From positions 1-63,021 of IMG/VR virus record IMGVR_UViG_3300037518_000374: 63,021 nt of DNA; one strand, given 5' to 3'. How positions within the stretch are numbered: position 1 is the first letter of the stretch; the number at the start of each line of letters is the position of its first letter. This DNA is from a virus. Its lineage: Duplodnaviria > Caudoviricetes. The translations under genes and the position numbers were made by a program. Under the pieces are notes generated by a model, which saw only the letters and a program-made list of their open reading frames with translations, had not been told where the DNA came from and searched no databases. Below, in pieces: positions 4,289-59,781 of the stretch.

Positions 4289-4293
4289 CGCCG

Positions 4294-22142: not shown

Positions 22143-24284
22143 CTATACCGAAACTGGCTGATTGACCTGCGGAAGTTCGGGGGGCAGGCCGGGCGACTCC
22201 GCCGCGTCCTGCTCCATGATCTCGCGCAGCTCCGCGTTCAGGATGTGGGGGGCGGTCTGCTGCGCCATCTGGAGCAGGAGTTGCATCCGCATCGCCTCGT
22301 TGCTCATGAGGAAATAGTGGCGGTTCAGGTGAATCTGGACCAGCTTCTGGGCCTCGGGCGCAAGCGAATCGTACTCCGGAGAGTTGATCCAGCGAAGGTG
22401 GCACGCGAGGTGGGTTTCATGGTTGTGCCACTTCTGGGGATCGATGCGCTGGCCGGACGCCATGAGGCGCTGCTCCTTGAACGCCATCGACTTGTGGATT
22501 CGGCCGCCCTCGAACACGGGATCGGACGTGCCGATCCCGAACATGCGAAGGATCAACTCGCGATCCTGCTGCGGATTCAATACCTGCCGCTCCAGAAGGC
22601 TGTCCACGACGGTCCGCTGGCCCTCCGGGCTGAGCGGGAGCTGGCTATCCACGTCCACAATGACGCGGAAGTAGTCCACCGCCATTTCGCCTTGCCGGCC
22701 GCCCACAAGATCGGATCCGATGAACCCCCCCACCCCCTTCAGTACCATCACCTCGCGCTCGTAGTCGTCGCTCGTCATCTGGATCAGCCGGCGTTCAGTG
22801 CAGAACTGATTCAGCATCGACAAAACCTGTCCGCCGAGCCTGCTGATCGCGACATTGCGCAACTTGATTGGCGTCATGTAGCGGGCATCGTCCTGGGCCT
22901 GAAGGGCCAGGATGCCGCGACCGGTCCGGACGCCCTGCGGCGCCTGGCCCGCCGTTACCTCGTGGATGTCCGACAGGTCCTGCATCGCCTGAAGAAGCGA
23001 TCCCTCCATGTTCTGAAGGTATGACGGCATCGGCGGCGGGACCAGATAGTCCGGCTTGTGGGGCGGCATGTAGCGAATCCGTTCGCCAAATGCTGTTGTG
23101 AACGAGTCGTCGTCGATGCCCGACACCATCGGGTCCAGAAGCTTTGGGTAGACATGGAGCATCATGTACTCCATCTCGTTCGATCGGATGTCGTTCAGCC
23201 GGCTCTGCGTCTCCATGAGCTGCTGGACTTTGCATCCGCCCAGAATGCTGAACGGCTGGTACAGGCCCTGAATGACCGAGATCGGAATCTGGCCGTGCTG
23301 ATAGGGGTTGGGTTGGTGCTGCAACACCTTCTGCTGACACCACGTCGCGTGGATGCCGGCGGGTCGGGATCGCCCCCCCGGCCGGACCCACAACTCCTCC
23401 ACGGCGTAGAGATCGTCGTAAATCGCGCCCTCGTCGTACATGCCGCCGCCCGCCAGCCGGGCGATCTGGGAGTGGAACGACAGGTCGCCCATATCGACGC
23501 CCGGCTGAAGGTCCCGCACCGCCTTGCGGCCGTACCGCTCCTCCAGCTCGTCAAGCGTCCTGAATCGCCGCACCAAGGCCCAGTTCGCCTTCTCGATCGT
23601 CTTGGCCGTCGGATCGATGAAGACATCGAATATCGTCTTGACCTCCACCGACACGTCGCCAATCGGGACCATCTCTGAATCGGCCGCTTCCTGGCCGACA
23701 ATGCGGCGGTACAGGTCGATCGACTCCTGGTCGATCTCGCCGGCGAACCGGTTCAGGAAGTCATCCTGCCGCACGGTCAGGCGCGGACCGGCCGTCGGGT
23801 CCCAGCACGACACCATGAATGCCGTTCCGGTCGTCTCGGCCCACCAGTGGGCTTCGTTCATGATCTGGTCCATCCCCAGGACGTTTCGCCAGTAGTGGCG
23901 CAGAACGAGCGTCCCGAGGTCCGCGACCGACTCGTCCTCCTCGTCCGGCGTGGCGGGCATAACCCTCCAGATCGGCTCCCGCGACATCATCTTGGCGATC
24001 CGGCCCTCCACCATCGGGAGCAGCCGGTTCTCTTTGGCATGAACCCGCCACCAGGCCGACTCCTCCGAGCTTGCACGGTCTACCAGCATCGTGCTGGCGC
24101 GGTCGAAGTCGTAGTCCTGGTACCCCAGTGTCCAGCAGATTTGCAGAAATGCCTGGCGCTGGACATCGCCCAGGAACCGCTTGCGTTGGCTTGACCAGTA
24201 GTCAATGAAGGCCGCAATCGAATCCTTGTCGTTGACCTTAACGCCGTTCAGGCGGCCACTCGATTCTGTTTCATATCCGGCCAT
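22143..24284 (-). CDS. portal protein (P22-like)
   Basis: 713 aa; ENRLLP, DVFIDP, HEVTAGQAPQGVRTGRGILALQ motifs of podovirus portals. Confidence 0.85.
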   Translation of the reverse strand: MAGYETESSGRLNGVKVNDKDSIAAFIDYWSSQRKRFLGDVQRQAFLQICWTLGYQDYDFDRASTMLVDRASSEESAWWRVHAKENRLLPMVEGRIAKMMSREPIWRVMPATPDEEDESVADLGTLVLRHYWRNVLGMDQIMNEAHWWAETTGTAFMVSCWDPTAGPRLTVRQDDFLNRFAGEIDQESIDLYRRIVGQEAADSEMVPIGDVSVEVKTIFDVFIDPTAKTIEKANWALVRRFRTLDELEERYGRKAVRDLQPGVDMGDLSFHSQIARLAGGGMYDEGAIYDDLYAVEELWVRPGGRSRPAGIHATWCQQKVLQHQPNPYQHGQIPISVIQGLYQPFSILGGCKVQQLMETQSRLNDIRSNEMEYMMLHVYPKLLDPMVSGIDDDSFTTAFGERIRYMPPHKPDYLVPPPMPSYLQNMEGSLLQAMQDLSDIHEVTAGQAPQGVRTGRGILALQAQDDARYMTPIKLRNVAISRLGGQVLSMLNQFCTERRLIQMTSDDYEREVMVLKGVGGFIGSDLVGGRQGEMAVDYFRVIVDVDSQLPLSPEGQRTVVDSLLERQVLNPQQDRELILRMFGIGTSDPVFEGGRIHKSMAFKEQRLMASGQRIDPQKWHNHETHLACHLRWINSPEYDSLAPEAQKLVQIHLNRHYFLMSNEAMRMQLLLQMAQQTAPHILNAELREIMEQDAAESPGLPPELPQVNQPVSV

Positions 24285-24332: not shown

Positions 24333-24779
24333 CTATCCTGACCCGCCCGCACCACGACCAAAATCCTTCTCGATCTGCTTCCGTTTCGCCAGCGCCGCCT
24401 CCTCTCGCGGTGTGCGGAGCGGGGCGCTGGGCGATATGGGCGGCAGATCGACCAGCCCGACCGACGCCATTGCCTTGCTGACGTTCTTGGGCGATATGTT
24501 CGCCCCCATCAGCAGGGCGGTGGCGCGCCAGTAACGGCCGTGGGCGAACTTCAGCTCCTCCTCCAGGATGGAGGCCGAGGCCGTCATGGCCTTACCGAGC
24601 GTTCCGAGCCCGGACTGGTATTCCTGGTTGCACTCGTGCATGGCCTTTGTGGTCTGGCTCAACTGATCGCTGGCCCGACGCCAGACGACGCACAGAGCCC
24701 CCAGCCCAGCCGCGAACCCAAGCAGCAGGGCCGCACTCAACAGAACGACGAAACTGTACGGATGAATCTCCAGCATCAC
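24333..24779 (-). CDS. membrane-anchored hypothetical protein
   Basis: N-terminal TM helix; coupled to the upstream stop. Confidence 0.55.
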   Translation of the reverse strand: MMLEIHPYSFVVLLSAALLLGFAAGLGALCVVWRRASDQLSQTTKAMHECNQEYQSGLGTLGKAMTASASILEEELKFAHGRYWRATALLMGANISPKNVSKAMASVGLVDLPPISPSAPLRTPREEAALAKRKQIEKDFGRGAGGSG

Positions 24780-25681
24780 GTCACTCCAGCATGAACAGCC
24801 TTCTTGTCGCGTCCGCCGCGCTTCAACTCACGATTCAATGACCGCAGATGGTCCTCCACCGTCCGGCCGTGCGGTCCGAAGTGCGCCAGCTTGACGCCAC
24901 AATCCACGTAGCTCCTGAACCCCGCCGCGCGAGCCCGAAGACCGAAGTCCACATCCTCGCCGCACAACACGCCGCCGTCCCACACACCACGGCCGGTCAG
25001 GAAGCTCTCCATGAACAGGTCGATCAGCGAATCCACCACGCCCTTGCCGTCGGCCGTCGCGCCGTCATCGCCGAACAGCCGAACCGCCCGGTCCACCTGC
25101 TGGCGAATGTGGTCCTGGAGGTCCCGGTCCCACCCGAATCTTTCCTGGCGACCCTGCCGGAACCAGAGCGACGCCGCCTCTCCGCCCAGCGCCTCGCACG
25201 GTATGACCATCCGTTCCAGAACGTCGCGCCTGATCAGGATACAGCCCGTGCCGGTCCACCTCCGCTCCACGATGCCGGGCTCGTCTTTCTCCATTTCGGC
25301 ATAGACCGCCTCGAACCCGTCCTCAGATTCGCACGCCGGATTGAACGGCGGGTCATACTTCGTCACCAGCGCCGACACAATCGGAACGTTGTGCGCTGCC
25401 ATGCGCTGGATGTGGCGGGGCCGCAACCCCATCACGTCCGAATCGACCATCAGCAGGTGTGTAAGTTCGGGATGGTGCTGAAACGATCGGGCACAGATCA
25501 GGTTCCGGGCATTCATGATCAGGCAACTCGACACGACGTTCATGTAGAGGTGGGCGGGCCAGTCGGACTCGTAATAATCCGCCCACAGGTGCGACCAGTC
25601 GATCAAAAACTCGACCGTCACCTGATCCCAAACCATCGTAGAGACCACGATATGCAGCTCGTCATCCTTGACTCGAAACAC
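24776..25681 (-). CDS. GT-A fold glycosyltransferase
   Basis: ARNLI, THLLMVDSD (DxD), GTGCILIRRDVLE, GEDVDF motifs; GGAGG RBS before GTG at 25681. Confidence 0.75.
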   Translation of the reverse strand: MFRVKDDELHIVVSTMVWDQVTVEFLIDWSHLWADYYESDWPAHLYMNVVSSCLIMNARNLICARSFQHHPELTHLLMVDSDVMGLRPRHIQRMAAHNVPIVSALVTKYDPPFNPACESEDGFEAVYAEMEKDEPGIVERRWTGTGCILIRRDVLERMVIPCEALGGEAASLWFRQGRQERFGWDRDLQDHIRQQVDRAVRLFGDDGATADGKGVVDSLIDLFMESFLTGRGVWDGGVLCGEDVDFGLRARAAGFRSYVDCGVKLAHFGPHGRTVEDHLRSLNRELKRGGRDKKAVHAGVT

Positions 25682-26962
25682 TCGCGACCTCCTTGTGCGA
25701 CTCCGGCGACATTCGGTCCACCTGGCACGGATCGAGCGCCAGCGAACCCTCCTCCATGCCGAGATCGCGGGCCTCCAGTGCCCGCATCTCGTCCGGACCG
25801 TAGCGCAACACGTACTGAACGTCCGGCCCCTCGCATATCTTTCGGGCCGCGCAGGACTGGCAGGGCGGGCAACGGGGCTGTCGCTCCCGCGCGATTGCAT
25901 CACAGAGCCGCTGTCGCTCGCGGCGCGCGTTCTGCCAGAACTCCTGTTCCTCGAACCATCCGCGCTCCACGCTGCTCCAGGGGTTCTTCAGTACACAGTC
26001 TGTCGTGGCCTCGAATGCCCACTCAAACGGATCGTACTGAATTCGGTGGTGCATCTCGCAGTTTCGGCCGAACCCGTACGATTGGGCGACACAGGGGGGG
26101 AAGTAACGGACGTTGCATTCCCAGCCGGCCGCCTCCACGATCCGAACCGCCTCGGCAATGAACGGCGCACAGTCCGTAAACGTCATCTGGAACTCACGGT
26201 CCTGAATAGCGTGCTGGTGGTACGGCATGAACTGGATCATGTTGTACACCACCGGCGGATAGCGGTCCACCAGGAATCGCGCGACATCCGGAAGCTCCCG
26301 AAACGTCTGCTCCACCACCGTACTGTTCCACCGGATGGGCCGACTCATGTGTTTGGAGCCGTCGATCAGGTGCTGGAACCCATCCTCCTTCTCCTTGCCA
26401 CCGTGCAGCACGACCAGCCGCCGGTTGCCCTCGCCGAGTTTCTGGCCGTCCAGCGTCCCCATGCCGTGGATGCTCAACTCGAACGTATCGACGCCGCAAT
26501 CCTCGAGCGCCCCGACCATCGCCTCGGTATAGTTCTGCCCGTGGCTGATAATGCTGGGCGCGAGACCGATGTTGGCGCAGTGCCGGACCAGATACTCCAG
26601 ATGCTCGTTCCGGCCATCAGGAAGACGGTGCTTCAGGCCGCGCTTCGTCAGGGCGGGGTCGCAGTAGATGGTCGGCTCACCGCCCGTGATGTCGGTAGCG
26701 TTCAGTCCGTAGTAGTGGCGGTACTTGTTTGCTCGACACAGCAGGCTCTCGGCGTCGTAAAACACCAGATCGGGCTGGTCGGCATAAAAACAATGCGGTC
26801 AGGTTGACCGCGGGGCGCCGTCGAGGGGTACTACGCCCACAACGGCGCCCAGCGGCAACTCCTATCACATGGGCCGCCATGTTTGCCGGCGAACATCCAA
26901 GAGCTTCTGGTGGGCGAACCGTGGGGACGAAACATTGGTCGCAGCGGTATTGCATCGCTCAT
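25662..26962 (-). CDS. radical SAM protein, interrupted by a 56-nt hairpin within its CxxxCxxC motif
   Basis: Upstream ORF 26962-26831 ends ...CDRSC; the downstream frame resumes PHCFY... and contains ITGGEP and a C-terminal CxxC..C cluster. Confidence 0.75.
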
Positions 26963-27048
26963 GCCACTCTCCTATAATAAACGGACCGATCAGGGGTTCG
27001 TGCCCCTGTCGGCCCTAACCTCAACGGACCTGACAAGGAGGTCTCGTC

Positions 27049-27753
27049 ATGGCTTCGACTAAGACTACCACAACCGAAAAATGGAAACCAGTCATCGGAT
27101 ACGAAGGCTGGTATGAAGTCTCCAGCCGAGGCCACGTCAAACGTATTCGTGGGGGAAGTGGTTCCAGGGCTGGCCAGAAACTTGCGGTCAGATTGAGCCG
27201 GCATGGTTATCCAAGGGCTAGCCTTTCTCGAAAAAACAAAGTTAAGGATGTCAAGGTTCACCATCTTGTTCTTGAGGCGTTCGTTGGCCCCATGCCACAG
27301 GGGAAGGTCTGCAATCACAAGGACGGAAACAAGCAGAACAACCACGTGGACAATCTCGAATGGGTAACACCGGCCGAAAACATTCGTCACGCAAACGATA
27401 TCCTCATGGTTCAGCACGGAGAGAGGAACTCGCGGGCCGTCTTCACAGAGAACGACGTCGTTGAAATCAGGTCTCTCGCCAGACAAGGGCTTACGTCCCG
27501 TGCGATTTCCGCGCGGTTCGGAGCAAGGAATCGACAAATAAGAAAGATCGTCAGCGGAGAACAATGGCCGCACATCCCTGGCGCAACAGGAAAAAGGCCA
27601 ATCACAAAAAAGCTTACCGAAAGCCTTGTTCGTCAAATACGACAGGCGATTTCTGATGGTGAGACCCATTGCTCAGTTTCCACGCGATTCGGAATCGCCA
27701 CGGCCACGGTTAGCCAGATCAGAAACCTGAAAACATGGCGACACATCGTGTAG
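27049..27753 (+). mobile_element. free-standing NUMOD4-HNH homing endonuclease, antisense to the operon
   Basis: EKWKPVIGYEGWYEVSS (NUMOD4), CNHKDGNKQNNHVDNLEW (HNH), C-terminal HTH repeats; lower GC; AAGGAGG RBS. Confidence 0.9.
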
Positions 27754-27760
27754 CGCCCGG

Positions 27761-27796
27761 TCACGGCCGGAACATCGGCCTTGTGTTGGTCGTCAT
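27761..27796 (-). pseudogene. orphaned N-terminus of the radical SAM gene (MTTNTRPMFRP*)
   Basis: ATGA-coupled to the upstream gene; shares RPMFRP with the radical SAM N-terminus on the other side of the HNH. Confidence 0.55.
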
Positions 27797-28032
27797 TTGT
27801 GAAACCTTCCCTTGTGAGCAGTTGGCCCCTTGTGTTCCGGCGTCTTGTCCGCCGCCGGGACCCGCGCCGGCGCCTCGGTCCGATGACCTCTGCCGCTATC
27901 CTGCTGGACGAGGATTCCCAGCAACGTCGAGACCACGCCCTCCAGGTGCGCGATACGAGAGCCCGGGTCGGAGGCACCGGACTTGACGGCCTGGGACTGA
28001 AGCTCCTTCAGCGATTCCAAGTAATCGTTCAT
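27793..28032 (-). CDS. hypothetical protein
   Basis: 79 aa, AAGGA RBS. Confidence 0.6.
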   Translation of the reverse strand: MNDYLESLKELQSQAVKSGASDPGSRIAHLEGVVSTLLGILVQQDSGRGHRTEAPARVPAADKTPEHKGPTAHKGRFHK

Positions 28033-28093: not shown

Positions 28094-28309
28094 TCATGTC
28101 GGCAACACGATCACGCGGCCGCTGTCGTTCGGTTCGAGTCGTTCGCAGATGTCCTCGATACGCTTGCACATGTCGCGAGCCTGTGCGGGCCTCAGCGAAA
28201 CTGTCAGCTTCGCACCTCCGCCCGCGATACCCAGCACCACCTTCCCCCTGTCCTTGTCCACCCCGACCAGTAGGCGGCGCGCATCAAACTCGGGCGGGAC
28301 ATTGATCAT
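28094..28309 (-). CDS. hypothetical protein
   Basis: 71 aa, ATGA-coupled. Confidence 0.55.
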   Translation of the reverse strand: MINVPPEFDARRLLVGVDKDRGKVVLGIAGGGAKLTVSLRPAQARDMCKRIEDICERLEPNDSGRVIVLPT

Positions 28310-29031
28310 ATCGAACCCCCCGACACTTCCGGCTCACGCCCGTACACAAGAGACAATATCTGGTTGATTCGATTCCATATTTCGGCGTCCATCAGGGGCC
28401 AGTGGTGCATTGTCTTCTCTTTCGGCATCTTGCTCCAGTCGCGACCCTTCACTTTCGTTGGGAACCCGTCGTTGTCGGCCTCGCGGTCCAACCGTTCCGC
28501 CACCACCATCCTTTTGTCATGATCGTTCATTTCCTCGATCCGTACCAGCATCGAGTTCCTGTCCCGAAGGCAGAACTGCAGGCCGAGCCAATTGATCGTC
28601 GCGTAGTACCAGCAGCACCACTCCCATCGGTTATCGATATCCGGAAGTCCGAAGTCTTCCGGGCCAAGCGTATCGCGGATAGCCGCCCCCACCATGTCGC
28701 GACTGTCGTGATCGTGGATGGCAAGCGAGCGAACGCAATCGAACGGGCTGCGTATCAGCCACACGATCCGAGCCTCTGGCCATGCGGCCCTGGCGGCATC
28801 GAGGCACCAGCCCATGTAGTGTTCGACGATGTACTTTTCCGTAATCGACCCGGATGCCTTGCGAAGCGCCTCCACGAGCAGAGAATGGTTTTGGCGCGCG
28901 TACTGCTGAAGTATGGTCTTGGTCTCACAGCCCATAACGGCCGCATGGGCGCCGCCAGGGTCGGCACTGAGCCATTGGCGGAACGAGTTCGTTCCACAGT
29001 GTCCCGTACCCGACACGATGGCCCTGACCAT
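28306..29031 (-). CDS. sulfotransferase-like protein
   Basis: SGTGHCGT 5'-PSB-like loop and ARIVWLIRSPFDCVRS 3'-PB-like motif. Confidence 0.65.
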   Translation of the reverse strand: MVRAIVSGTGHCGTNSFRQWLSADPGGAHAAVMGCETKTILQQYARQNHSLLVEALRKASGSITEKYIVEHYMGWCLDAARAAWPEARIVWLIRSPFDCVRSLAIHDHDSRDMVGAAIRDTLGPEDFGLPDIDNRWEWCCWYYATINWLGLQFCLRDRNSMLVRIEEMNDHDKRMVVAERLDREADNDGFPTKVKGRDWSKMPKEKTMHHWPLMDAEIWNRINQILSLVYGREPEVSGGSI

Positions 29032-29062
29032 CAGACTTGCTCCCGCCGCGACCCCACGGCGC

Positions 29063-29737
29063 TCATGACCCTGGTTTCTGAATCGCCCATACGTTTGCCT
29101 CCTGTATCGCCCCAACGCGCTCGCGGCCCACGAACTCCATGACCGCTTTCCAGACCGCCGGAACCTGTCGGTCGTGACCGCACATTACGCCCATCGGCAT
29201 AACCTTCGGCCACCACGCCGCAATGTCCTGCATCACGGCATCGTACGTGTGGTCGGCGTCGATGAAACACATCGCAATCTGGCCATCCGCAAACCGTTTC
29301 GCCGCCTCGACCGAATGCTCCTCGATCAGATTAATGTGCTCCCACAGGCGAAGCGCCCGGCAATTCGCCTCGAATGCCGAACGAACAAGGTGTCCGTGGT
29401 TGACCGAATATAATTCGTTAATCATGTCATCGGGGTCATCGCTTCCGGAAAACGTATCGACCGCAAAATACGAACATCCACGATCCAGAGCTTTCGCGGC
29501 GATCGCAGTCGTGGTGCGGCCTAGCGCAACCCCGACCTCCACCACGTGACCGGTCGGCACCGACTTGACATACCGCCCGAGGGCAAACAAATCGTCTTCC
29601 GTAATCCATCCCGGCACAAACGAACCGGCCCCCAGGAACGTTTCAGAGAAGTGCTTTGTCGCCAGACGGCGCAGTTGCCTGACCAGTGCGTCGTCATCTC
29701 GCAACCTCTTTGCCTGCCTTGTTTTCTGTCCTGTCAT
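29063..29737 (-). CDS. class I SAM methyltransferase (Methyltransf_24-like)
   Basis: VVEVGVALGRTT, AVDTF, FIDADH, GVMCGHD. Confidence 0.8.
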   Translation of the reverse strand: MTGQKTRQAKRLRDDDALVRQLRRLATKHFSETFLGAGSFVPGWITEDDLFALGRYVKSVPTGHVVEVGVALGRTTTAIAAKALDRGCSYFAVDTFSGSDDPDDMINELYSVNHGHLVRSAFEANCRALRLWEHINLIEEHSVEAAKRFADGQIAMCFIDADHTYDAVMQDIAAWWPKVMPMGVMCGHDRQVPAVWKAVMEFVGRERVGAIQEANVWAIQKPGS

Positions 29738-32831: not shown

Positions 32832-33383
32832 TCACATCTCCATCTTCCAGCCCGTCTCGTCCGACACGTTCTCTTCGAGCGGTCCGTCCAGTGCGTTCTT
32901 CTTGTCCCGGTCAACGTCGTATGGCCGGATCGCACAATACTGGCCGATTCCGTTGCCCGGCCTCACCTGCGGGTAGTAGGTCGGGACGTGCTCGTCGTAC
33001 ACCTCGTCGGTCGTGACCTTCAGCACCACCGTCCCGTCCTCGTCCAGCACCCGCACCACGTCCGCGCCCCTGACCTCTCCGTAGCCCGGCCCCTCGCCGA
33101 GCCGGTAGTGGACTCGCTGTCCGACGTAGGGTCCTGGCCCGAATCCGAGCGGCATGATGGCGCTGCTGAGGGCGTTTAGCTTCTGGTCGTGTCGCCTGAC
33201 CCGATCCTCGATCGTGCCCATCACGTCCTCGTTCTGGAGCTTGTGCAAACTTCTGGACTCATTCTGCTCGGTTCCGGTCGAGGTTTCGGTCGCCATATCG
33301 TGTTCCTCCTCTATTTCCCGATTTATGGTCCGAACAATGCCCGCCGGCTTCGGCGGCTCGGGCCTTGCCCTTTTTCTGCTCAT
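32832..33383 (-). CDS. hypothetical protein
   Basis: ATGA-coupled to TerL; PYVGQRVHY motif common in phage proteins. Confidence 0.6.
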   Translation of the reverse strand: MSRKRARPEPPKPAGIVRTINREIEEEHDMATETSTGTEQNESRSLHKLQNEDVMGTIEDRVRRHDQKLNALSSAIMPLGFGPGPYVGQRVHYRLGEGPGYGEVRGADVVRVLDEDGTVVLKVTTDEVYDEHVPTYYPQVRPGNGIGQYCAIRPYDVDRDKKNALDGPLEENVSDETGWKMEM

Positions 33384-35140
33384 CGCATCCTGCTCCGTGG
33401 CCGGCGGTATGTGCCGCGGCGCGGCTTGTTGGCCAGTTGGTCCTGCACCCGGCCCTCGATCGAGCGCCTGACACGCGACTCCTCGAGCGTCATCCCCACC
33501 CCGCGCGGAACCTTCTGGTTCCGTATATCGAGCCACCGGCGGGCGGCCGGGTCGATCGCCCGCGCGCGGAACATCGCGTGGGTCCCGACGATCAGGACGT
33601 TTACGCGATGAATCCCCTCCTCGATCTCGTGGCGAAGGCGGTCACGATGCCCGCCCGGGGTCGTGTGGGGCAGGACCGGCTCCTCCAGGTGGGTACCCAT
33701 CATCATAATCAGATCGGTCCGGCTCCGGTCCGCGACCGTCCCGACAAACTGATCGTTGCCGCTCAGCGTTATGATCTGTTCCGCAAGTTGCGGAATGCCC
33801 AGCCCCTGCTCCGCACTGCGGGGGATGTAGAGTTCGCGATAGATGTGCAGATGGGCCTGAATGTTGAACGTGACGATCAAATAGCGCAATGCGTCGCAGG
33901 CGTGATTGTCCTTATCGAGGATCATCTCGCTGTTCTCTCGTCTTCGGTAGCTCAGCATTTCGCGCACGAGGTTCCGGCACGACGGATCGACCGTCAGGCC
34001 CGGCCCGTCGCCCGGAATGATGCAGCCGAACAGCGTCACGAACGGGTCAACCCCGCCCCAGTCGATCGCGCGGTAGCACTTCCATGCACTGTTGATTTCG
34101 GGCGTGGCCGACACGCTTTCCGGCCCGGCCAGCCATACGCCGTTCGGGCCGTATCGGCCGACATGGCGGGTCTCGGTGAATCGGGGATAGACCCGCCCCT
34201 CGGCGTGACTGAACGCCTCTTCCGGTGTTCGCGGATATTGCCGGACCATGTAGAGCTGGTCGGCTTCGTGTTCCGCCGCCTCCTGCTCGTACCACGCCTC
34301 GTCACGCTTCGGATGGGCGCTCCAGGGCCAGAACAGATTCCGATACGGGTCCTTTCCGCGCCCCTTCTGGGCCGCGCGCCAGCCCTCGAAGAAGTAGCCC
34401 GTCGGACCCTCGGAGGTCGCGATCTGAGTCACGAACCCGCTTGCGGTCTCGACCGCCGGCTCGACCGAGCGAAGCAGCACCTTCAACAGTCCGGGCCGTT
34501 CGCGCTCGATCTTCGTCCCCTCGTCAACAATGATCCAGTCGGCCGCAATCGAATCCGCCGCCGCCGGCGTGGCGGGAAAGATGCGTATCCACGAGCCCCA
34601 TGAATCCGGCCCCCACTGCATCAGGTCCCGGTTGTCCTTCTGGAGCCGGCCCTGCAGGAACCACGGAAGGCGACGCCAGATGAACTTGCAACGCGAAATG
34701 AAATCAACCGAAAACTCCGTCTTGTGAACGATGTACCCAACCGTACGCATCTCGTGAAGCGAGCAGAGCCAGACCGCGAACAACGCCAGACACCACGTAA
34801 TGCCGATCCGGCGAGCCTTCAGAGCCCGAATCCACTCCCGGACAAGAAGCCAATAGCCAAGATCGACCTGGCAATCGTACGGACTGAACCGAATCGCGCC
34901 GTGGCTCTCTTTGTCCTCGATGTGACCCCAGCGACAGGCCCACCACCAGAAGTCCGCACCGCACCTGCTGACCTCCCGCACCACCGGAACCGAACCCAAT
35001 CCCTCCGGGGCCGAAAGCAACTCGTCCCGCCCATCATCACACCAGAGCTGATGACGGCTGACCTCCGGGCCGAACAGCCCAATCCAATGCGAAACATCGG
35101 GCGTGCAGCACCGAAGCTCGTCAGACATCGTGATCTTCAA
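33380..35140 (-). CDS. terL: terminase large subunit
   Basis: LKARRIGIT (Walker A), WIIVDE (Walker B), AIDWGG and DNHACDALRY nuclease motifs. Confidence 0.85.
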   Translation of the reverse strand: MKITMSDELRCCTPDVSHWIGLFGPEVSRHQLWCDDGRDELLSAPEGLGSVPVVREVSRCGADFWWWACRWGHIEDKESHGAIRFSPYDCQVDLGYWLLVREWIRALKARRIGITWCLALFAVWLCSLHEMRTVGYIVHKTEFSVDFISRCKFIWRRLPWFLQGRLQKDNRDLMQWGPDSWGSWIRIFPATPAAADSIAADWIIVDEGTKIERERPGLLKVLLRSVEPAVETASGFVTQIATSEGPTGYFFEGWRAAQKGRGKDPYRNLFWPWSAHPKRDEAWYEQEAAEHEADQLYMVRQYPRTPEEAFSHAEGRVYPRFTETRHVGRYGPNGVWLAGPESVSATPEINSAWKCYRAIDWGGVDPFVTLFGCIIPGDGPGLTVDPSCRNLVREMLSYRRRENSEMILDKDNHACDALRYLIVTFNIQAHLHIYRELYIPRSAEQGLGIPQLAEQIITLSGNDQFVGTVADRSRTDLIMMMGTHLEEPVLPHTTPGGHRDRLRHEIEEGIHRVNVLIVGTHAMFRARAIDPAARRWLDIRNQKVPRGVGMTLEESRVRRSIEGRVQDQLANKPRRGTYRRPRSRMR

Positions 35141-35508
35141 AACAACAACCCCCCATACACGTGCCGCAGGCCGTCAAGCAGGTCGCGCCCCAACTCCGTC
35201 AAGGCGTAAATCCGACGACGCCACTCGTCCGGAAAGTCCCCAACATCGCCATCCAGACTCGATGCCACATAGCCATCACGCTCCAGCTCGGTCAGCAAGC
35301 TGTAGACCGTCTCGCGAGCCAGAACACAACCCAACTCCCGACGCAACCACCGACGAGCCAGATAGCCGTAGTCCGCACCAGACCTAACGGCCAACAACAA
35401 CAGCAGCCGCTGATCAAACTGGCTCGCCTTACGGGACGAAACCAGATGCGCCGCTGTGGCCATCAACGCAACCGCAAAGCCGGACCCAGAAACACGAACG
35501 TCAGGCAT
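35137..35508 (-). CDS. PadR-like winged-helix regulator
   Basis: DYGY, TVYSLLTELERDGYV, RRRIYALTELG motifs; start uncertain. Confidence 0.7.
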   Translation of the reverse strand: MPDVRVSGSGFAVALMATAAHLVSSRKASQFDQRLLLLLAVRSGADYGYLARRWLRRELGCVLARETVYSLLTELERDGYVASSLDGDVGDFPDEWRRRIYALTELGRDLLDGLRHVYGGLLF

Positions 35509-35782
35509 CAACATCCCCCACCGGTGGCCAGGACGGGAAATCTCGCGGTTTGGACCAGGCTGGGGGCGACAAAAAAAGACAATCCACCACCACGCATGAG
35601 GTCGTGAACGGACCACCAGAACAAGACACGTCCCCAACCCGCTCCAGAACGATGGAATTGATCCGATCGTCAGCCTGCTCCCGACCACTCCTGCTCCACC
35701 GGCCCGCCAGAGGAGTCGAGGCCAGAACGGACCCAGCCAAAGCCCCCATAACCCGACCAATAAACCCGCGACGTGTAGTCAT
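35501..35782 (-). CDS. small protein with twin-arginine-like motif
   Basis: MTTRRGFIG followed by a hydrophobic stretch. Confidence 0.45.
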   Translation of the reverse strand: MTTRRGFIGRVMGALAGSVLASTPLAGRWSRSGREQADDRINSIVLERVGDVSCSGGPFTTSCVVVDCLFLSPPAWSKPRDFPSWPPVGDVDA

Positions 35783-35887: not shown

Positions 35888-35994
35888 ATGTTAAAATGGG
35901 TAAGATGGAGGATGTTAAGATAGGTAAAAAGTGTCCCATAATGGGGGACATTTCTTACCTATCTTAACATTTCACAGATACCCCATCTTAACAT
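35888..35994. repeat. AT-rich palindromic iteron-like element, copy 1
   Basis: 59-bp core 35912-35970 (ATGTTAAGATAGGTAA...TTACCTATCTTAACAT) with two flanking degenerate units. Confidence 0.8.
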
Positions 35995-37162: not shown

Positions 37163-37414
37163 ATGATGACCGAGACCGAGATTGACAGGATCGTCGATGA
37201 GCTGCAGGCCAGCATCTACCGCGACGCAAGCATCTACCGCGGCCACGCCACAACCGCGGCCGCGGCCGCGTGCCTAGATCAGCCGCCACAGGTGGTCCGC
37301 GGCCTGATGGCGCGCGTCCGGCTCGACACACACCTAGGCCCCATGTACACAGACGAGCTGGCCGGAGAGATCCTCCGACTTGGTCGCGAGCGCGACCGCG
37401 ACGCTGGCCGCTGA
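37163..37414 (+). CDS. early hypothetical protein
   Basis: GGAGGA RBS preceded by a hairpin. Confidence 0.6.
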   Translation: MMTETEIDRIVDELQASIYRDASIYRGHATTAAAAACLDQPPQVVRGLMARVRLDTHLGPMYTDELAGEILRLGRERDRDAGR

Positions 37415-37496
37415 CCTCGCCGGCGATGGCACCTCACAAGGTGCCTCAGCCGATGCGGTCATGGTGGCCCATCAGGCGCCCTACGGGGCTGGAGGA

Positions 37497-37772
37497 ATGA
37501 CGATTATGACGCGCGAACAATTGCAGACGGCGCTGGCGCTGGCCACAAGCCGGCGCGGGCTGAATCTGGACGATCTGGCCCTATTCGACAGATTCGGGCT
37601 GCCTGATTTCAAGCCGGTCACGTGCACGGTCTCGGCGCTGGCCATGCTGGTCCGGTGGCAATGCATCTGCTTCAACGGGTCGATCGACCCCGACGCGCTG
37701 GACGAAATCGCGAGCATCGGCCGGCATCGTTTCTTGGTACTGGGCGACGAAGCCGGAAAGGCGGCGACGTGA
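37497..37772 (+). CDS. early hypothetical protein
   Basis: GGAGGA RBS, MTIMTREQ start. Confidence 0.6.
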   Translation: MTIMTREQLQTALALATSRRGLNLDDLALFDRFGLPDFKPVTCTVSALAMLVRWQCICFNGSIDPDALDEIASIGRHRFLVLGDEAGKAAT

Positions 37773-38485: not shown

Positions 38486-38689
38486 ATGGCGATGACACCG
38501 AAAGACTGGGCCTACACCGCACTGGAACCGGCGACACGAAGAGCCGAGGCTGAAGAGCGCGCCACTGGAGAGCGGCGATACGTGGTTCGATCGACTCCCG
38601 ACAATGGTGAGCGATGGTTTTATGAGGTGGTGTCGAGAATGCCCCTTGTCGGCGAGTGGTACGACTCTCATGGCATCCGGCACGGTTGA
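38486..38689 (+). CDS. early hypothetical protein
   Basis: GGAGGA RBS, 67 aa. Confidence 0.55.
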   Translation: MAMTPKDWAYTALEPATRRAEAEERATGERRYVVRSTPDNGERWFYEVVSRMPLVGEWYDSHGIRHG

Positions 38690-38769
38690 CCTCGCCGGCG
38701 AGCGCCCCGCGGGGCGCCAGCCGATGCGGTCACGGTGGCCGGCAGGTTGCCCCGATGGGGCAGGGAGGA

Positions 38770-39099
38770 ATGACGATGACGACGGCTACGAACAAAGACC
38801 TGATGGCAAAGATCGAAGAAGTGGCGGCGGCAATCCAAGAATCGGTCAACGCATACTTCGCGAACCGATTCCCGTCTCTGACTCCAGACAAGGTGAATAT
38901 CAGGGGGCGCTCTAAGTTTGTTGCGATTGACATCGGCACGAGCGGCGCCTTTCTGGTCGAAAAGGCCACCGGTGAGTTGTTCAACATACAGGCGTATGGC
39001 CGCCCCGACCGGAACAAGAAGCGCAAGGCAGACATCGGCAACGTCTACACCGTGGACGGTTCGACGCTGTTCGCCAAACGTTACAACAGCCTGCGCTGA
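38770..39099 (+). CDS. early hypothetical protein
   Basis: Hairpin plus GGAGGA leader; SGAFLVEKATGELFNIQAYGRP. Confidence 0.65.
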   Translation: MTMTTATNKDLMAKIEEVAAAIQESVNAYFANRFPSLTPDKVNIRGRSKFVAIDIGTSGAFLVEKATGELFNIQAYGRPDRNKKRKADIGNVYTVDGSTLFAKRYNSLR

Positions 39100-39250
39100 C
39101 CTCCAGCCCGGTTCGGGTGGGCCTGCGGGCCTGCCCGGGCCGGGCGCCTTGGGGCCGCTCCTGCGGGAGCTGCCCCCGCTGGGAGCCCGCGTAGGGCTCC
39201 GGCCGGGCGCCGGGCGGCGTGGCGCAGGTTGCCCCGATGGGGCGGGAGGA

Positions 39251-39553
39251 ATGACGATGACGACCAAGACCAAGACGGCAGCAAAGCACACGCCGGGTCC
39301 GTGGAGGGTTGCGACATTCGATGACCAACTGGAGGTGATACGCGACTTCGCGCAGTCGATCTGCAGCATGTGCCGAACCGACGGCGGGGCGAACGCCCGG
39401 CTGATTGCGGCCGCGCCGGAGCTGGCGGAGGCGTGCCGACGGCTGACGAAGGCCCAGCCCTGCAACTGCCGATCGGTCAAGGTCGTAGCGGGGCCAGACG
39501 CGGTATGTGACTCGTGTTTCGGCCTTGCCGCGCTCGAGAAGGCCGGTATCTGA
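39251..39553 (+). CDS. phage protein of the HTPGPW / NARLIAAAPEL family
   Basis: Both motifs present; hairpin plus GGAGGA leader. Confidence 0.7.
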   Translation: MTMTTKTKTAAKHTPGPWRVATFDDQLEVIRDFAQSICSMCRTDGGANARLIAAAPELAEACRRLTKAQPCNCRSVKVVAGPDAVCDSCFGLAALEKAGI

Positions 39554-39638
39554 TCCTCCTGCCCGGGCCGGTGCGGGCGTGGATTGCCCGCCCGGCTCGG
39601 GCGCCTTTTGACCGCCCCAATGGGGCTGGGAGAACACA

Positions 39639-41210: not shown

Positions 41211-41590
41211 TTACCCCCGAGATGATTGCCGCGGCAGCTTGCCTAACACTCGCCACCGTGGGCGTCGTCCACCTCGCGTTGTCGGTCCTGCGCTTTTTCG
41301 GACGGCTCGGACGCGCGATAGGCCGCAGCGCCCCCCGCGTGGCTCGTGATCCGCAACCCGCCCGAGCACGCCGTCGGGTCGTGGCGAGCGTCACGGCTAC
41401 GACGCCAACGCTCCCAACCGCCATCGACACACCGACCCTCACGCCCGAGCAGCAGGACGCGGTAGTGGTCCTGACCAAACTCGGCGAGCACAAGGGGCGG
41501 GCCGAGGACGTGCTGCGTCACGTGGTGGGGCGTCCCGATGTCCAGACGGTTGAGCAATGGGTTGAGCTGTACTACCAGCTCAGACCGTAG
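41207..41590 (+). CDS. TM-anchored protein with RuvA-C/UBA-like C-terminal helices
   Basis: DAVVVLTKLGEHKGRAEDVL...TVEQWV resembles RuvA domain III. Confidence 0.5.
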   Translation: MITPEMIAAAACLTLATVGVVHLALSVLRFFGRLGRAIGRSAPRVARDPQPARARRRVVASVTATTPTLPTAIDTPTLTPEQQDAVVVLTKLGEHKGRAEDVLRHVVGRPDVQTVEQWVELYYQLRP

Positions 41591-41618
41591 GTGCCCCGAT
41601 GGGGCAGGGAGAATAACG

Positions 41619-43280
41619 ATGGTGATTTGGACCTACGGGGCCAAGGCCCCGAAACTCGGCGGAGAATCGATCAGCGATCAGATGCGGATGGCCCACCGGT
41701 ATCGCAACACGCTCGTCGAGATCGAGTTGCGGCGGCGCGAACGGGCGAGTCAGATCATCCGCCAGCAGTGTCCCGAGGTGCTGGAGATCGACGACGCGAT
41801 CTCACGCCTCGATGACCAGATCGACACCGCCGCCGCCGCCGTCAGGACGGCGAACCAGTCGGCCCGCTCCCGGACCGTGACGGCGGAGCAACGGTCCGAG
41901 ATCAAGGCCCTGCGCGCAGAGCGCAAACCGCTGTACGCGAGGCGCAAACTACTGCGAGCAGAACAGTTCGGGGAGGGCTCGATTTCCCGCGCGCTCCTCG
42001 ACGGGGCCGACGCCGAGTCGGTCGCCGAAGTCAAGGCCGCGCGGGCGGCGTGCGGGTGCTACTGGGGGACCTACCTGCTGATCGAGGCGGCGGCCAAGCA
42101 GTTCCGCAAGGGCACGCCCCCACGATTCACTTCGTATCGCGGATACGGGCGCGTGGGGGTCCAGTTCCAGGGCGGGCTGCCGTTCGGCGCCGCACTGAGC
42201 GGCGCGGATAAGCGGCTCCAGCTCGTGCCCACGAACAATCCGCGGTGGCGAACCTGCCGAATGAGGATCGGCAGCAACGCCGACCGCTCGCCAATCTGGG
42301 CCGAGTGCCCCGTCAGGCTGCATCGCCAGCCGCCGGACGGCGCGGTGATCAAGTGGGCATGGCTCAAACGTACACCGCGAGGCCCGAACCGCCGTATTGA
42401 CGAGTGGTCGCTCCAGGTGGTGCTGGACGGTGTTCAGCCGCTCGCCGAGCAGCGGCCCGGACCCGGATTCGGCGCGGTCGCGGTCGATGTGGGGTGGCGA
42501 TGGCTGGGCGATCGGCTCCGCGTGGCCTACTGGGTCGGGCTCGACGGCCGGTGCGGCGAGCTGGCGATCGGCGAGCACGACCTGGATCGGTGGCTCTATG
42601 CCGACGTACTCCAATCTGAACAGGATCGTCGGTTCGACGCGATGCGCGCGCACATCATCGCGTGGCGCGAGCGGGTGGGGCCGGCGATGCCGGACTGGCT
42701 CGCCGAAGCGTTCGCCACGTTGCCCAAGTGGCGCTCGACTGGACGACTGGCCGCACTCTGCCGGCGGTGGGGGCAGGAGCGGGTCGATGGTGATGCCGAG
42801 CTGATGCCGGTACTCGATGAGTGGATGAAGCGAGACTGTCGCCTCCACACCGAGCGGTCGTGCCTGCTGAAGAAGGCGGCGCGATGGCGAGAGGACCTAT
42901 ACCGCCAGTTCGCTGCCGACCTGCAGAACCGATACCAGACCCTACTGGTCGAGGACGCCGACTGGCGTGACCTCTTGCGCGCACCGGACGTGACGGACGA
43001 GGACGAGACCAATCGGCGCCGCCGGTACGCCCGAATTGCGTCGCCCGGCATGATGCGTCAGATTCTACGTGCGTGCGGGCGTGCGGTGAAGCTCGCGAGC
43101 GAGTACACTACGCAGCGATGTGGTGCGTGCGGAGAAATAGAGGCGTTCGACGCGGCGGAGAATCTCGTGCACACATGCCGGCATTGTGGCGCGCGATGGG
43201 ATCAGGACGAGAATGCGTGCCGGATCATGCTGGGACTGCATTCCGGCGAGTTGGCCCCGGCGAGCGGACCGGTGGCCTGA
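41619..43280 (+). CDS. cas12m: miniature type V CRISPR effector, Cas12m (V-U1)-like, 553 aa
   Basis: AHRYRNTLVEIE, long coiled coil, YWGTY, VGVQFQ, RLHRQPP, AVDVGWR (RuvC-I D290), LVED (E445), IASPGMMR, CxxC...CxxC, WDQDENA (D530); adjacent to a CRISPR array. Confidence 0.8.
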   Translation: MVIWTYGAKAPKLGGESISDQMRMAHRYRNTLVEIELRRRERASQIIRQQCPEVLEIDDAISRLDDQIDTAAAAVRTANQSARSRTVTAEQRSEIKALRAERKPLYARRKLLRAEQFGEGSISRALLDGADAESVAEVKAARAACGCYWGTYLLIEAAAKQFRKGTPPRFTSYRGYGRVGVQFQGGLPFGAALSGADKRLQLVPTNNPRWRTCRMRIGSNADRSPIWAECPVRLHRQPPDGAVIKWAWLKRTPRGPNRRIDEWSLQVVLDGVQPLAEQRPGPGFGAVAVDVGWRWLGDRLRVAYWVGLDGRCGELAIGEHDLDRWLYADVLQSEQDRRFDAMRAHIIAWRERVGPAMPDWLAEAFATLPKWRSTGRLAALCRRWGQERVDGDAELMPVLDEWMKRDCRLHTERSCLLKKAARWREDLYRQFAADLQNRYQTLLVEDADWRDLLRAPDVTDEDETNRRRRYARIASPGMMRQILRACGRAVKLASEYTTQRCGACGEIEAFDAAENLVHTCRHCGARWDQDENACRIMLGLHSGELAPASGPVA

Positions 43281-43428: not shown

Positions 43429-44779
43429 GTCTCGGCCCGTGCGCAGACGGGGATACTCTGCGACAAAACCATCCCATCCTTGATGCGGACTGACTCGCCT
43501 GTCTCGGCCCGTGCGCAGGCGGGAATACCCTGCGACTGCCGGTGCCAAGGCAGGAGGACTACGGCGCTGACTTCGTCTCGGCCCGTGCGCAGGCGGGAAT
43601 ACCCTGCGACTCATCGCGCACCCCCGCGCACGCTGCGGACGGCCGGGTCTCGGCCCGTGCGCAGGCGGGAATACCCTGCGACTTCGCCGCCAGATCACGG
43701 CGCACGACCTCGGGCTTCGTCTCGGCCCGTGCGCAGGCGGGGATGCTCTGCGACGACCGCAAAGTGGTGCTCCGCTTCAAGGAGCGTCTCAGCCCGTGCG
43801 CAGACGGGGATGCGCTGCGACGCCCTGGGCGTGGTCGGCAAACTGCCGGCTGTCCGATGTCTCAGCCCGTGCGCAGGCGGGAATACCCTGCGACTACCCC
43901 GGGTGCTTGTCGAAGGGCGTTTGTCGCAGAGTCTCGGCCCGTGCGCAGGCGGGAATACCCTGCGACGCCTGGTCGGTCGTCTCAGCCCGTGCGCAGACGG
44001 GTATGCTCTGCGACGATCGCATCGGTGTACGCCCGGAGGAACGAGCCGTGTCTCAGCCCGTGCGCAGGCGGGGATACTCTGCGACGGTCAAGGTGGCCTT
44101 GCCGTCGATCTTCAAGGTGAACGTCTCAGCCCGTGCGCAGGCGGGGATACCCTGCGACCGACGATTCGCAGGTGTCGCAGAGTATCCCCGTCTGGTCTCG
44201 GCCCGTGCGCAGACGGGTTTGCTCTGCGACGCACTCAGCGCGATTCGTTCCACGGTATCTGCTGCGTCTCGGCCCGTGCGCAGGCGGGAATACCCTGCGA
44301 CGCCTGGTCGGTCGTCTCAGCCCGTGCGCAGGCGGGGATACTCTGCGACGGCCAAAGCCCTGCTCTCCGGCGCTTCGTCGTCTCGTCTCGGCCCGTGCGC
44401 AGACGGGGATGCTCTGCGACGCCTTCCAGCAATTCCATCCAATTCAAGCTGCTGGCAGTCTCAGCCCGTGCGCAGACGGGGATGCTCTGCGACGCCTTCC
44501 AGCAATTCCATCCAATTCAAGCTGCTGGCAGTCTCAGCCCGTGCGCAGGCGGGGATACTCTGCGACGAGTCGGGCCGGGGCCGCGTATCCATTGTCTCTT
44601 GGTCTCGGCCCGTGCGCAGACGGCAATACTCTGCGACCGGCACGGTTGGGGGCGATCCCTTCGACCCCGTCAGTCTCAGCCCGTGCGCAGACGGCAATAC
44701 TCTGCGACGAGTCGCCCCGGGGCCGCATACTTATTGTCCTTGGGTCTCAGCCCGTGCGCAGACGGGGATGCTCTGCGAC
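43429..44779 (+). CRISPR. CRISPR array, 20 x 36-bp repeats, 19 spacers
   Basis: Repeat 1 is GTCTCGGCCCGTGCGCAGACGGGGATACTCTGCGAC, with variants at seven positions; spacers 31-38 nt except two of 12 nt; spacer 15 = 16 and 8 = 13. Confidence 0.98.
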
Positions 44780-58894: not shown

Positions 58895-59781
58895 GCAGAC
58901 TTCCTGTCGGCCGCGATCCTGTCGTAATGCTCTTTCGGAAGCCATCCGATCTTGGTGTACTCGCCCGTCACGCCGGGCGGACACAGGGCGTACGGCAGAC
59001 CAAACTTGATCCCCTTCCAGGCGTTCGCCAAGTCCTTCTCGATGTGGTTCAGGTGCAGGTAGGCCGCGAGCGGGTCGCCCTCCAGGGCCTTGACGGACCG
59101 CTTGGCGGTCGCGATGGCGGCCATCAGGTCGCGCAGCTCCTGAGACCGCAGAAACACGTCCGCGATCCGCAGGTCCGTTATGGCGTTGCCCAGTTCGTCT
59201 GCGCTCAGCACGGGCTCGTCCGGAAGTCCGGGGTCATCTCCCGCAACCTCGGGTTCGGCGGGATCCGAACCAGCCTCGCCAGCCGCATCGGCCATCCTTC
59301 GCTCCACCACCTCGCTGATCAGCTTGGCCGAGATCGGCCGCCCCTCTTCCTTGGCCCGCTCCTGGATCTCCAGCCATGCGTCCGGCTGCTCGTCCTGCGG
59401 CAACTCGCCCAACGCGCGGGCCTGCCGCTCATTCGAGACCTTATGTGAAGATGGGTAAGATTCGGAATGTGAAGATAGGTAAGAAATGTCCCCCATTATG
59501 GGACACTTTTTACCTATCTTAACATCTTTCTTCTTACCTATCTTAACATTCCTACTCGAAACCTCGACCGCCGAGATCAGCCTGTAGCCGTGAGACTTCC
59601 CGTACCCCCACCGATCCTTCATGTAGGCCTCGAATGAGCGGTGCTCAGCCCGGTACAGCCGGTTATCGCGAATCGTGACCAGCGCCCGCCCGACCTGCAT
59701 GGTTCCGGCCTCGATCTGCGATTCGAGTTCGGCAAGTTTGGTTGCTTCAGGATCGGTGAGTGCAAGTTCTTCCTGCGGCAT
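58891..59781 (-). CDS. phage DNA-binding/replication-associated protein
   Basis: VGRALVTIRDNRLYR..SFEAY..RW, NERQARAL motifs; carries a palindromic element in-frame. Confidence 0.7.
   Translation of the reverse strand: MPQEELALTDPEATKLAELESQIEAGTMQVGRALVTIRDNRLYRAEHRSFEAYMKDRWGYGKSHGYRLISAVEVSSRNVKIGKKKDVKIGKKCPIMGDISYLSSHSESYPSSHKVSNERQARALGELPQDEQPDAWLEIQERAKEEGRPISAKLISEVVERRMADAAGEAGSDPAEPEVAGDDPGLPDEPVLSADELGNAITDLRIADVFLRSQELRDLMAAIATAKRSVKALEGDPLAAYLHLNHIEKDLANAWKGIKFGLPYALCPPGVTGEYTKIGWLPKEHYDRIAADRKSA
59443..59549. repeat. AT-rich palindromic iteron-like element, copy 2
   Basis: 59467-59525 is the reverse complement of 35912-35970 with one mismatch. Confidence 0.8.

Follow-up and report, generated by a model that had tools for sequence, protein, structure and literature searches.

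What becomes of a radical SAM gene whose cluster motif is cut in two by a stretch of DNA that breaks the reading frame? The question is raised by the IMG/VR virus record IMGVR_UViG_3300037518_000374, a linear stretch of 63,021 nucleotides (nt) with an estimated completeness of 71%, which was analyzed whole and is called the window below. On its minus strand, a radical SAM gene (26962-25662) is split between the second and the third Cys (Cys2 and Cys3) of the CxxxCxxC motif by 56 nt (26854-26799). We find that these 56 nt are a genuine DNA insertion in the most conserved stretch of the gene and that they are physically linked to an HNH homing-endonuclease cassette. Of the explanations for this arrangement, we give about an even chance to an insertion tied to the endonuclease, by which the likely target site of the enzyme is disrupted and the gene is no longer translatable by standard decoding.

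The layout of the gene can be followed codon by codon. A Shine-Dalgarno-like AGGAG (26969-26973, minus strand), apparent from direct reading of the sequence, lies 6 nt 5′ of an ATG at 26962, and the N-terminal part that follows (26855-26962, minus) translates into 36 codons with C-D-R-S-C, which holds Cys1 and Cys2, at its end. Frame 0 from this ATG gives MSDAIPLRPMFRPHGSPTRSSWMFAGKHGGPCDRSC, with the TGC of Cys2 ending at 26855, and then runs on into the insert as RWAPLWA before it meets a TAG (26831-26833, minus) within the loop of a hairpin, where standard decoding terminates after 43 codons. The insert itself (26799-26854, minus) is a single-copy coding gap of a length that is not a multiple of three. 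The exit frame, followed from 26855, is open through the entire insert except for a terminal TGA (26799-26801, minus), which codon-by-codon reading places immediately 5′ of CCG CAT TGT. From there the C-terminal part (25662-26798, minus; 378 codons plus TGA) reads CCG CAT TGT TTT TAT, PHCFYADQPDLVFYDAESLL..., that is, P-H-C(Cys3)-F-Y, in the frame of an open reading frame (ORF) of 367 amino acids (aa). It runs without interruption from 26798 to its stop at 25662 and keeps the Cys-rich region at its C-terminus. The initial annotation of this DNA had listed the AGGAG, the ATG at 26962, the CDRSC, the 56 nt, the in-frame TAG in the loop, the terminal TGA, and the PHCFY frame, and we recovered every one of these elements in the sequence.

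This arrangement has direct consequences for what can be made from the gene. The first restart codon in the C-terminal part is a GTG at 26765, and because Cys3 lies between the TGA at 26799-26801 and this GTG, neither fragment can carry the full cluster motif. Under standard decoding, Cys1 and Cys2 end up in the 43-residue product, and CX3CX2C comes together in one polypeptide only if the 56 nt are skipped. A split, two-piece enzyme was rejected because the stretch containing Cys3 has no start codon. A frameshift into the exit frame followed by read-through of the TGA was rejected as well; it would lengthen the spacing of Cys2 and Cys3 by 19 residues, a slippery site is lacking, and TGA serves as an ordinary stop in the window (25662-25664 is one example). 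Excision of the entire 62-nt hairpin fails in turn, as it would delete Cys2. The Pfam profile Radical_SAM (PF04055) scores the C-terminal part alone at 18.6 bits against a gathering cut-off of 29.5, whereas an uninterrupted homologue with 69% identity (P0002) reaches 35.0 bits. The 367-aa ORF call is a truncated fragment, a point of caution for annotators, and no second radical SAM copy that might serve as a paralogue is present in the 63 kb of the window.

Comparison with homologues establishes that the 56 nt interrupt an otherwise normal gene. A protein search with the C-terminal part returned 55 proteins at E ≤ 1e-3, its own ORF included, the best of the others at 7e-178. Among the best 16 of these 55, the motif is uninterrupted in 12 (for example, GGNCDRACAHCFY in P0002 and GGPCDRACPHCFY in P0005), while P0006, P0012, P0013, and P0014 are without the N-terminal part. 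Given the uninterrupted motifs of the homologues, excising exactly 56 nt from the window restores colinearity. When related loci were searched with tblastn, the C-terminal part matched 15 fetched loci, and the N-terminal part was found in 13 of them, adjacent and in frame, at 40-67% identity over residues 4/7/8-36. In all 13, the match to the N-terminal part ends exactly 3 or 6 nt before the match to the C-terminal part; in the other two of the 15 loci (26% identity), no match to the N-terminal part was detectable. Of the 85 residues that never vary among the other 13 close homologues, the C-terminal part retains 83 (for uninterrupted members the figure is 83 of 83-92), and the DNA around the site, CATTGTTTTTAT, is identical in two of the related loci, L016 and L017, and in the window. 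It had been claimed that removal of the 56 nt restores CDRSC-(P/R)-HCFY between halves that are otherwise intact, and an alignment to uninterrupted homologues had been proposed as a check; both the 13 of 13 contiguous loci and the 83 of 85 residues bear this out.

The collections behind this comparison differ in what they hold. An alignment-based scan of viral_contigs gave 12 loci, all at ≤44% identity, and a single-protein scan of the same set gave no relative. Three loci, all uninterrupted, were found in metagenome_contigs, the contigs of P0006, P0012, P0013, and P0014 not being among them, and genome_contigs gave one locus, in a Phycisphaerae metagenome-assembled genome (MAG), which is a weak hint at the host. 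Short ORFs resembling the 43-aa N-terminal fragment were searched for, with no candidate found. Among the 14 closest family members, the window ORF counted, five show an N-terminal truncation; P0006 and P0013 start at one alignment position, ...ANKF, ~24 residues past the motif. One related viral contig, L008, carries two tandem radical SAM paralogues (2926-3762 and 4001-4897).

Is the insert real? Parts of the stretch occur in 18 public runs, 11 of them with at least half of the sampled words, and none is on record as RNA. The runs come from sediment metagenomes and may stem from a single campaign (16 carry the date 2020); four of the 18 (X6, X11, X12, and X13) were examined, all as Logan contigs. 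The whole insert is present with 0 differences and 0 gaps in X6 record 30 (26777-26989) and in X12 record 13 (26776-27003), the 3′ junction is crossed from the opposite side by X6 record 29 and X11 record 5, and neither a joint nor an insert-less contig came up in the four runs. In addition, the cluster of the 367-aa ORF has five member sequences on five contigs. Other sediment runs thus reproduce the insert in their Logan contigs, which rules out a one-off error of assembly. Palindromes may be chimeric in origin, the Logan unitigs of X6 and X12 break at 26776/26777-26805, maybe at a branch of the assembly graph, and no record in the four runs has at least 31 letters on both sides of the 3′ junction; even so, an assembly or sequencing artefact is hardly credible. 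In viral_contigs, exact patterns for an allele with an empty site and for the 3′ junction had 0 matches; because the window's own record is excluded there, this is uninformative.

The insert also stands alone. Its best other match in the window is 12 nt long (E 0.14), the exact insert arms have two matches in IMG/VR that we judged to be chance, the Phycisphaerae MAG (G001) offers only matches at E ≥ 0.3, and of the 401 genomes of the phylum of that MAG, six have one weak partial match each. A multi-copy palindromic element of the byp, repetitive extragenic palindrome (REP), or miniature inverted-repeat transposable element (MITE) kind was found in none of the window, IMG/VR, G001, or the 401 genomes. 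The initial annotation had allowed that the insert might be a one-off or an assembly artefact. The second of these doubts is answered by the other runs, but the first stands, as other genes and genomes gave no second copy; the same hairpin, which it had proposed to look for in other phage genes, did not turn up again in the window or, by its exact arms, in IMG/VR. We note that the 9-mer TGACCGCAT at the 3′ junction of the insert also occurs in repeats at ~37.4 and 38.7 kb. This was judged to be chance because those repeats are plus-strand upstream elements without other similarity (best shared word 12 nt). They form a repeated intergenic element (37392-37510 and 38672-38790) in which a hairpin, TGACCTCGCCGGCG...GCCGATGCGGTCA, precedes starts of the GGAGGAATGACG type on the plus strand.

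What sets this site apart in the genome is its neighbor. Directly upstream of the radical SAM gene and divergent from it lies a freestanding HNH homing-endonuclease gene (27049-27753, plus strand; 234 aa), which went unmentioned in the initial account of the context of the split motif. It starts 87 nt upstream of the radical SAM ATG, on the opposite strand, and has its own AAGGAGG ribosome-binding site (RBS). The protein joins a catalytic domain to DNA-binding modules, with NUMOD4, HNH_3, and an HTH-like tail (Pfam HNH_3 4e-14, NUMOD4 9e-11, weak HTH_38), matches phrog_59 'HNH endonuclease' at 2e-51, and shares ~35% identity with Bacillus phage proteins annotated as HNH homing endonucleases; its relatives in IMG/VR are at ≤42% identity. 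The GC content of the gene is 0.519 vs 0.58-0.66 in 14 other genes. There is no second copy of it in the window and no homologue in any related locus (13 of the 13 with both radical SAM parts).

The ancestral state of this junction is visible in the closest syntenic relative, L016 (61% identity), in which the TGA of the upstream gene overlaps the ATG of the radical SAM gene (ATGA). In the window, the same two neighbors are 1,343 nt apart, with the HNH gene and a 79-aa ORF (27793-28032, minus; no Pfam or PHROG match) between them, and this 1.34-kb segment is absent from L016. The segment, present or absent between conserved neighbors, provides the current RBS, the ATG, and ~7 N-terminal residues of the radical SAM gene. 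On its sequence, the HNH cassette is in all probability a recent acquisition. The 86-nt spacer that separates the starts of the radical SAM and HNH genes also holds a sub-threshold Rfam match (26982-27056, plus) to an R1162-like plasmid antisense RNA, at 33.2 bits vs a gathering score of 55, E 4.7e-4, and full model length, which spans a hairpin, CAGGGGTTCGTGCCCCTG, and the RBS of the HNH gene.

Homing endonucleases typically target conserved DNA, and the insert lies in such DNA. In the account to which we give an even chance, an HNH endonuclease gene would have invaded the junction of two translationally coupled genes. Its likely recognition sequence would be the conserved Cys-motif DNA, ~200 nt from the endonuclease gene, and the insert, by splitting this sequence, would render the genome immune to its own enzyme, as has been reported for MobA and the gene 60 gap of T4. 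The 56 nt would then belong, through origin or selection, to the adjacent HNH cassette. We estimate that a random insertion would fall within ~300 nt of the sole endonuclease gene in 63 kb with a chance of ~1%, and we therefore take the insert and the endonuclease gene to be linked. By analogy, a cassette origin like that of T4 mobA/gene 60 would be the most economical account of the position of the insert.

Because standard decoding stops at the TAG and neither fragment can carry the full motif, the enzyme is most likely not made, or made at a trace level only. The disruption is recent enough that the remaining gene shows no decay. The radical SAM gene belongs to an accessory glycosyltransferase/methyltransferase cluster flanked by terminase and portal, so that its loss is plausibly tolerated. 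One of the truncated homologues may tell a similar story. P0012 (51% identical) begins MTSLVSIA-FYANK, which is an out-of-frame reading of DNA encoding CDLSCKHC (4 DNA solutions vs 0 of 200 shuffled controls) and thus points to a second lineage in which the frame is broken at Cys3 of this motif. The break may be a real lesion or stem from an error in sequencing, and we count it, with that qualification, on the side of an endonuclease-linked disruption.

Several observations weigh against this account. Both halves are fully intact, with 83 of 85 invariant residues as in uninterrupted homologues, which fits continued selection equally to recency. The inserted segment furnishes the N-terminal part with an ATG in frame, preceded by a good RBS, the insertion is clean to the nucleotide, and the TGC of Cys2, the take-off codon of any ribosomal bypass, lies in the 5′ arm of the stem. 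With the interrupted ORF cluster counting five sequences on five contigs and the phage occurring in many sediment runs, the interrupted allele is not obviously costly. Synonymous changes would buy immunity more cheaply than a 56-nt insert, and the endonuclease target is a presumed one. Finally, the association of endonuclease and insert has n = 1, because there is a single interrupted locus with DNA in hand.

The proximity of insert and endonuclease also bears on a competing explanation, in which the neighborhood is coincidental and an unrelated accident turned the gene into a recent pseudogene, through a palindromic insertion by replication template-switch, by fold-back repair, or from a stray miniature element. 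The 3′ arm indeed repeats, inverted and imperfectly (~20 of 24 positions), the 24 nt that contain the end of the exon, as fold-back synthesis would give, and a very recent accident would fit the lack of visible decay, the single copy without a family, and the accessory nature of the gene. However, the arms are imperfect, with 4 differences, contrary to a very recent perfect fold-back; the insert sits in the best-conserved DNA of the gene; and by our inference its distance of ~200 nt from the sole homing-endonuclease gene in 63 kb would arise by chance in ~1% of cases. We regard an accident of this kind as unlikely.

The insert folds strongly, as had been noted. Its core hairpin (26808-26854, minus; inverted repeat I7) consists of 3 bp, a bulge, an 11-bp GC-rich stem, and a structured loop, and the inverted-repeat arms are separated by a spacer of 16 nt. 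The 91 nt around the insert fold with -49.4 kcal/mol (z -4.97) and the 56-nt insert by itself with -35.5 kcal/mol (z -4.42), with 0 of 200 shuffles as good in either case. In a 70-nt sliding scan of both strands, the insert site reaches -43.3 kcal/mol vs a window mean of -21.0 (standard deviation 6.4) and ranks 12th among de-duplicated windows. The most stable 70-nt hairpins of the window lie elsewhere, at 39101-39170 and 39561-39630 (plus; -54.7 and -53.5 kcal/mol), each starting ≤8 nt past the stop of a plus-strand ORF (38656-39099 and 38918-39553) in a region where the coding strand is ambiguous. An alternative, terminator-like small hairpin (26785-26811, minus) can form from the 3′ end of the insert and the start of the C-terminal part, GCGGTCA-ACC-TGACCGC (26811-26795) followed by ATTGTTTTTA (26794-26785); when enforced, it gives -45.2 kcal/mol vs the -49.4 of the minimum free energy (MFE) structure.

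In the MFE structure the UGC that ends the N-terminal part is paired, in the 5′ arm of the stem. Rare codons of the first exon, AGG (9%) and AGT (10%), pair with the tail of the insert, and a co-adaptation of exon and insert was considered on this ground. Of 2000 random tails, however, 242 gave as much extra stability when the helix was extended into the exon, and of 2000 random exon ends, 195 did so. Because 10-12% of random controls do as well, co-adaptation was rejected and dropped as evidence.

A strong structure together with exact restoration of the frame is all that speaks for removal of the 56 nt at the RNA level, whether as a mini-intron or through a hairpin-guided cut and ligation. 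Group I and group II self-splicing introns are far larger than 56 nt. Rfam gives no match at gathering score in the window and only sub-threshold ones at the site (sR40, E 0.87; mir-455, E 3.3), the 5′ junction lies inside the stem while the 3′ junction lies 3 nt beyond it, an asymmetric placement, and the MFE structure has no bulge-helix-bulge geometry. We consider RNA-level removal very improbable, and splicing and artefact would account for little even if their chances were added together.

There remains the ribosome. In a programmed bypass, a non-homologous analogue of the T4 mobA/gene 60 cassette would rescue the full-length enzyme: translation would take off at the TGC of Cys2, slide over the 46-nt hairpin and a 10-nt tail, re-pair the peptidyl-tRNA-Cys on the TGA, and resume at CCG to give CDRSCPHC. 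We took the features expected of a gene 60-type bypass from sections of a preprint (bioRxiv 10.1101/2022.08.31.505936), and a number of them are present. The gap of 56 nt is not a multiple of three and follows 36 codons of an ORF that is intact apart from it, the entry frame and the exit frame each have a stop, and the take-off codon lies in the 5′ arm of the stem. The RBS, the ATG, and 7 additional N-terminal residues come from the linked homing-endonuclease cassette directly upstream, in the geometry of a MobA element, and the interrupted allele is widespread in sediment runs. The same sections describe 'considerable latitude' in P-site re-pairing (bioRxiv 10.1101/2022.08.31.505936), and a near-cognate landing is therefore conceivable; the undamaged halves and the good signals for initiation would be in keeping with it.

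Other features of the gene 60 type are lacking, however, among them the Topo2L location of the MobA elements, the host gene here being a radical SAM gene. There are no matched take-off and landing codons that would yield CX3CX2C; TGC and TGA differ at the third base and are near-cognate only, the sole matched pair (CCG 26845-43 and CCG 26798-96) would yield CX3CX5C, and a landing of tRNA-Arg on CGC 26797-95 would lead into the wrong frame. The codon after the TGC is CGC, which makes up 29% of Arg codons in 15 window genes and is neither stop nor rare, the TAG coming 8 codons later. In place of a compact stem-loop such as the 24-nt UUCG one of T4, there is a hairpin of 46 nt with -35.5 kcal/mol. 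A mini-Shine-Dalgarno sequence (mini-SD; GAG/GGA/AGG/GGG) is missing 5-7 nt before the landing site, and the 3′ gap of 10 nt, GTCAACCTGA with GCGG before it, is not AU-rich. The extension of the helix into the exon is no better than in 10-12% of random controls, and no second, diverged copy that would show conservation was found in the window, IMG/VR, G001, or the 401 genomes.

These absences leave a programmed bypass improbable, though as a rival it deserves as much attention as the accident above. They weaken the hop that the initial annotation had listed first, with take-off at TGC and near-cognate landing on TGA: the pair does restore the motif, but the codon match, the rare or stop codon, and the mini-SD are all missing. 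Of its other two options, RNA splicing finds no support in Rfam, in the size of the insert, or in the placement of the junctions, and the evidence favors an inactivating palindromic insertion. By the account of the preprint, MobA/Topo2L cassettes are the only family from which programmed long-range bypass is known in phages (bioRxiv 10.1101/2022.08.31.505936), and in our full-text literature searches, including 2019 onward, no bypassed gap was reported for a radical SAM gene. That the combination of homing endonuclease and bypassed coding gap was invented a second time, independently and without homology, in a high-GC podovirus-like phage, with UGC hopping to a near-cognate UGA and with none of the gene 60 signals (stop codon, mini-SD, matched codons), is by our estimate a shade more doubtful still. 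It would imply a different, hairpin-dominated bypass mechanism.

The surroundings of the locus are those of an accessory region. The gene lies in a cluster between the terminase (33380-35140) and portal (22143-24284) genes that comprises GT2, GT1-like, methyltransferase, weak sulfotransferase-like, and radical SAM genes and a further GT-like gene. The upstream neighbor (28306-29115, minus), which has the weak sulfotransferase-like match, is the gene whose homologue in L016 has the stop that overlaps the radical SAM ATG; the downstream glycosyltransferase-like gene (24779-25681, minus) has a start of its own, AAGGAGG-6 nt-GTG, and is syntenic in L016.

Farther away, a 580-aa ORF (41538-43280, plus) has a Cas12f1-like TNB domain (Pfam 3.6e-07) and transposase PHROG matches over residues 439-568, and by these matches it is probably a TnpB/Cas12-like nuclease in a phage. 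Some 850 nt past it, at 44131-44230, three 28-nt arms form two overlapping inverted repeats (I4 and I5). AT-rich islands of inverted repeats (I1-I3) stand out from the 63% GC genome at 35888-35994 and 59432-59560 and have a common motif, TTAAGATAGGTAAGAA / TTCTTACCTATCTTAA; the first adjoins a PadR-like regulator gene (35137-35760), and the islands may be operator or promoter regions. The sole tRNA gene found in the window is a tRNA-Ile with the anticodon TAT (35-107, minus).

How does this locus compare with systems that are already known? The freestanding HNH enzymes of phages, both the I-HmuI-like ones with NUMOD4/HNH_3 and the T4 Mob family, are matched in domain make-up, in insertion between genes that are adjacent in relatives, and in deviant base composition. 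The immunity of carrier genomes to HNH homing endonucleases is usually ascribed to point polymorphisms in the target. Unlike the usual carriers, the present genome would have a 56-nt insertion in its presumed target. Like REP/MITE-like palindromic elements, the insert is a GC-rich imperfect palindrome inside a coding sequence. Rickettsia palindromic elements sit in frame within coding sequences. The insert is not in frame, and no other copy of it was found in the window, IMG/VR, G001, or the 401 genomes.

The byp elements of Magnusiomyces capitatus mitochondria have matched take-off and landing codons, of which there are none here for the right product. They are multi-copy, with 81 in one genome, and the codon after their take-off site is a sense codon without a tRNA, as far as sections of the preprint describe them (bioRxiv 10.1101/2022.08.31.505936). 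In the radical SAM gene, by contrast, the insert is single copy and the codon after TGC is CGC, a common one.

The closest resemblance is to T4. As in gene 60, an otherwise intact ORF is broken after a few dozen codons (46 in T4, 36 here) by a short gap whose length is not a multiple of three, and as in mobA/gene 60 there are in-frame stops, an HNH-family endonuclease cassette directly upstream that supplies the start of the downstream ORF, and an insert in highly conserved coding DNA. The preprint reports that the gene 60 gap (50 nt) protects the genome from MobA self-nicking and places all of its bypass cassettes in Topo2L (bioRxiv 10.1101/2022.08.31.505936). Unlike in T4, where the host gene encodes a topoisomerase II, the host gene here is a radical SAM gene, and the endonuclease gene is on the opposite strand. 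The mobA of T4 is a 37-codon remnant. Matched codons for the right product, a stop or rare codon after take-off, a mini-SD, and an AU-rich 3′ gap are all without a counterpart, and a 46-nt hairpin of -35.5 kcal/mol takes the place of the 24-nt UUCG stem-loop.

By analogy, then, the locus appears akin to the T4 mobA/gene 60 arrangement with key decoding signals lacking. If the insert is bypassed, it would be a second, unrelated case and would make endonuclease-driven coding gaps a recurrent evolutionary solution, while its different gene, GC-rich 46-nt hairpin, and near-cognate landing would widen the rules of bypass. If it is not bypassed, the locus would still be a clear case in which an accessory gene is disrupted at its most conserved motif in association with a selfish endonuclease cassette.

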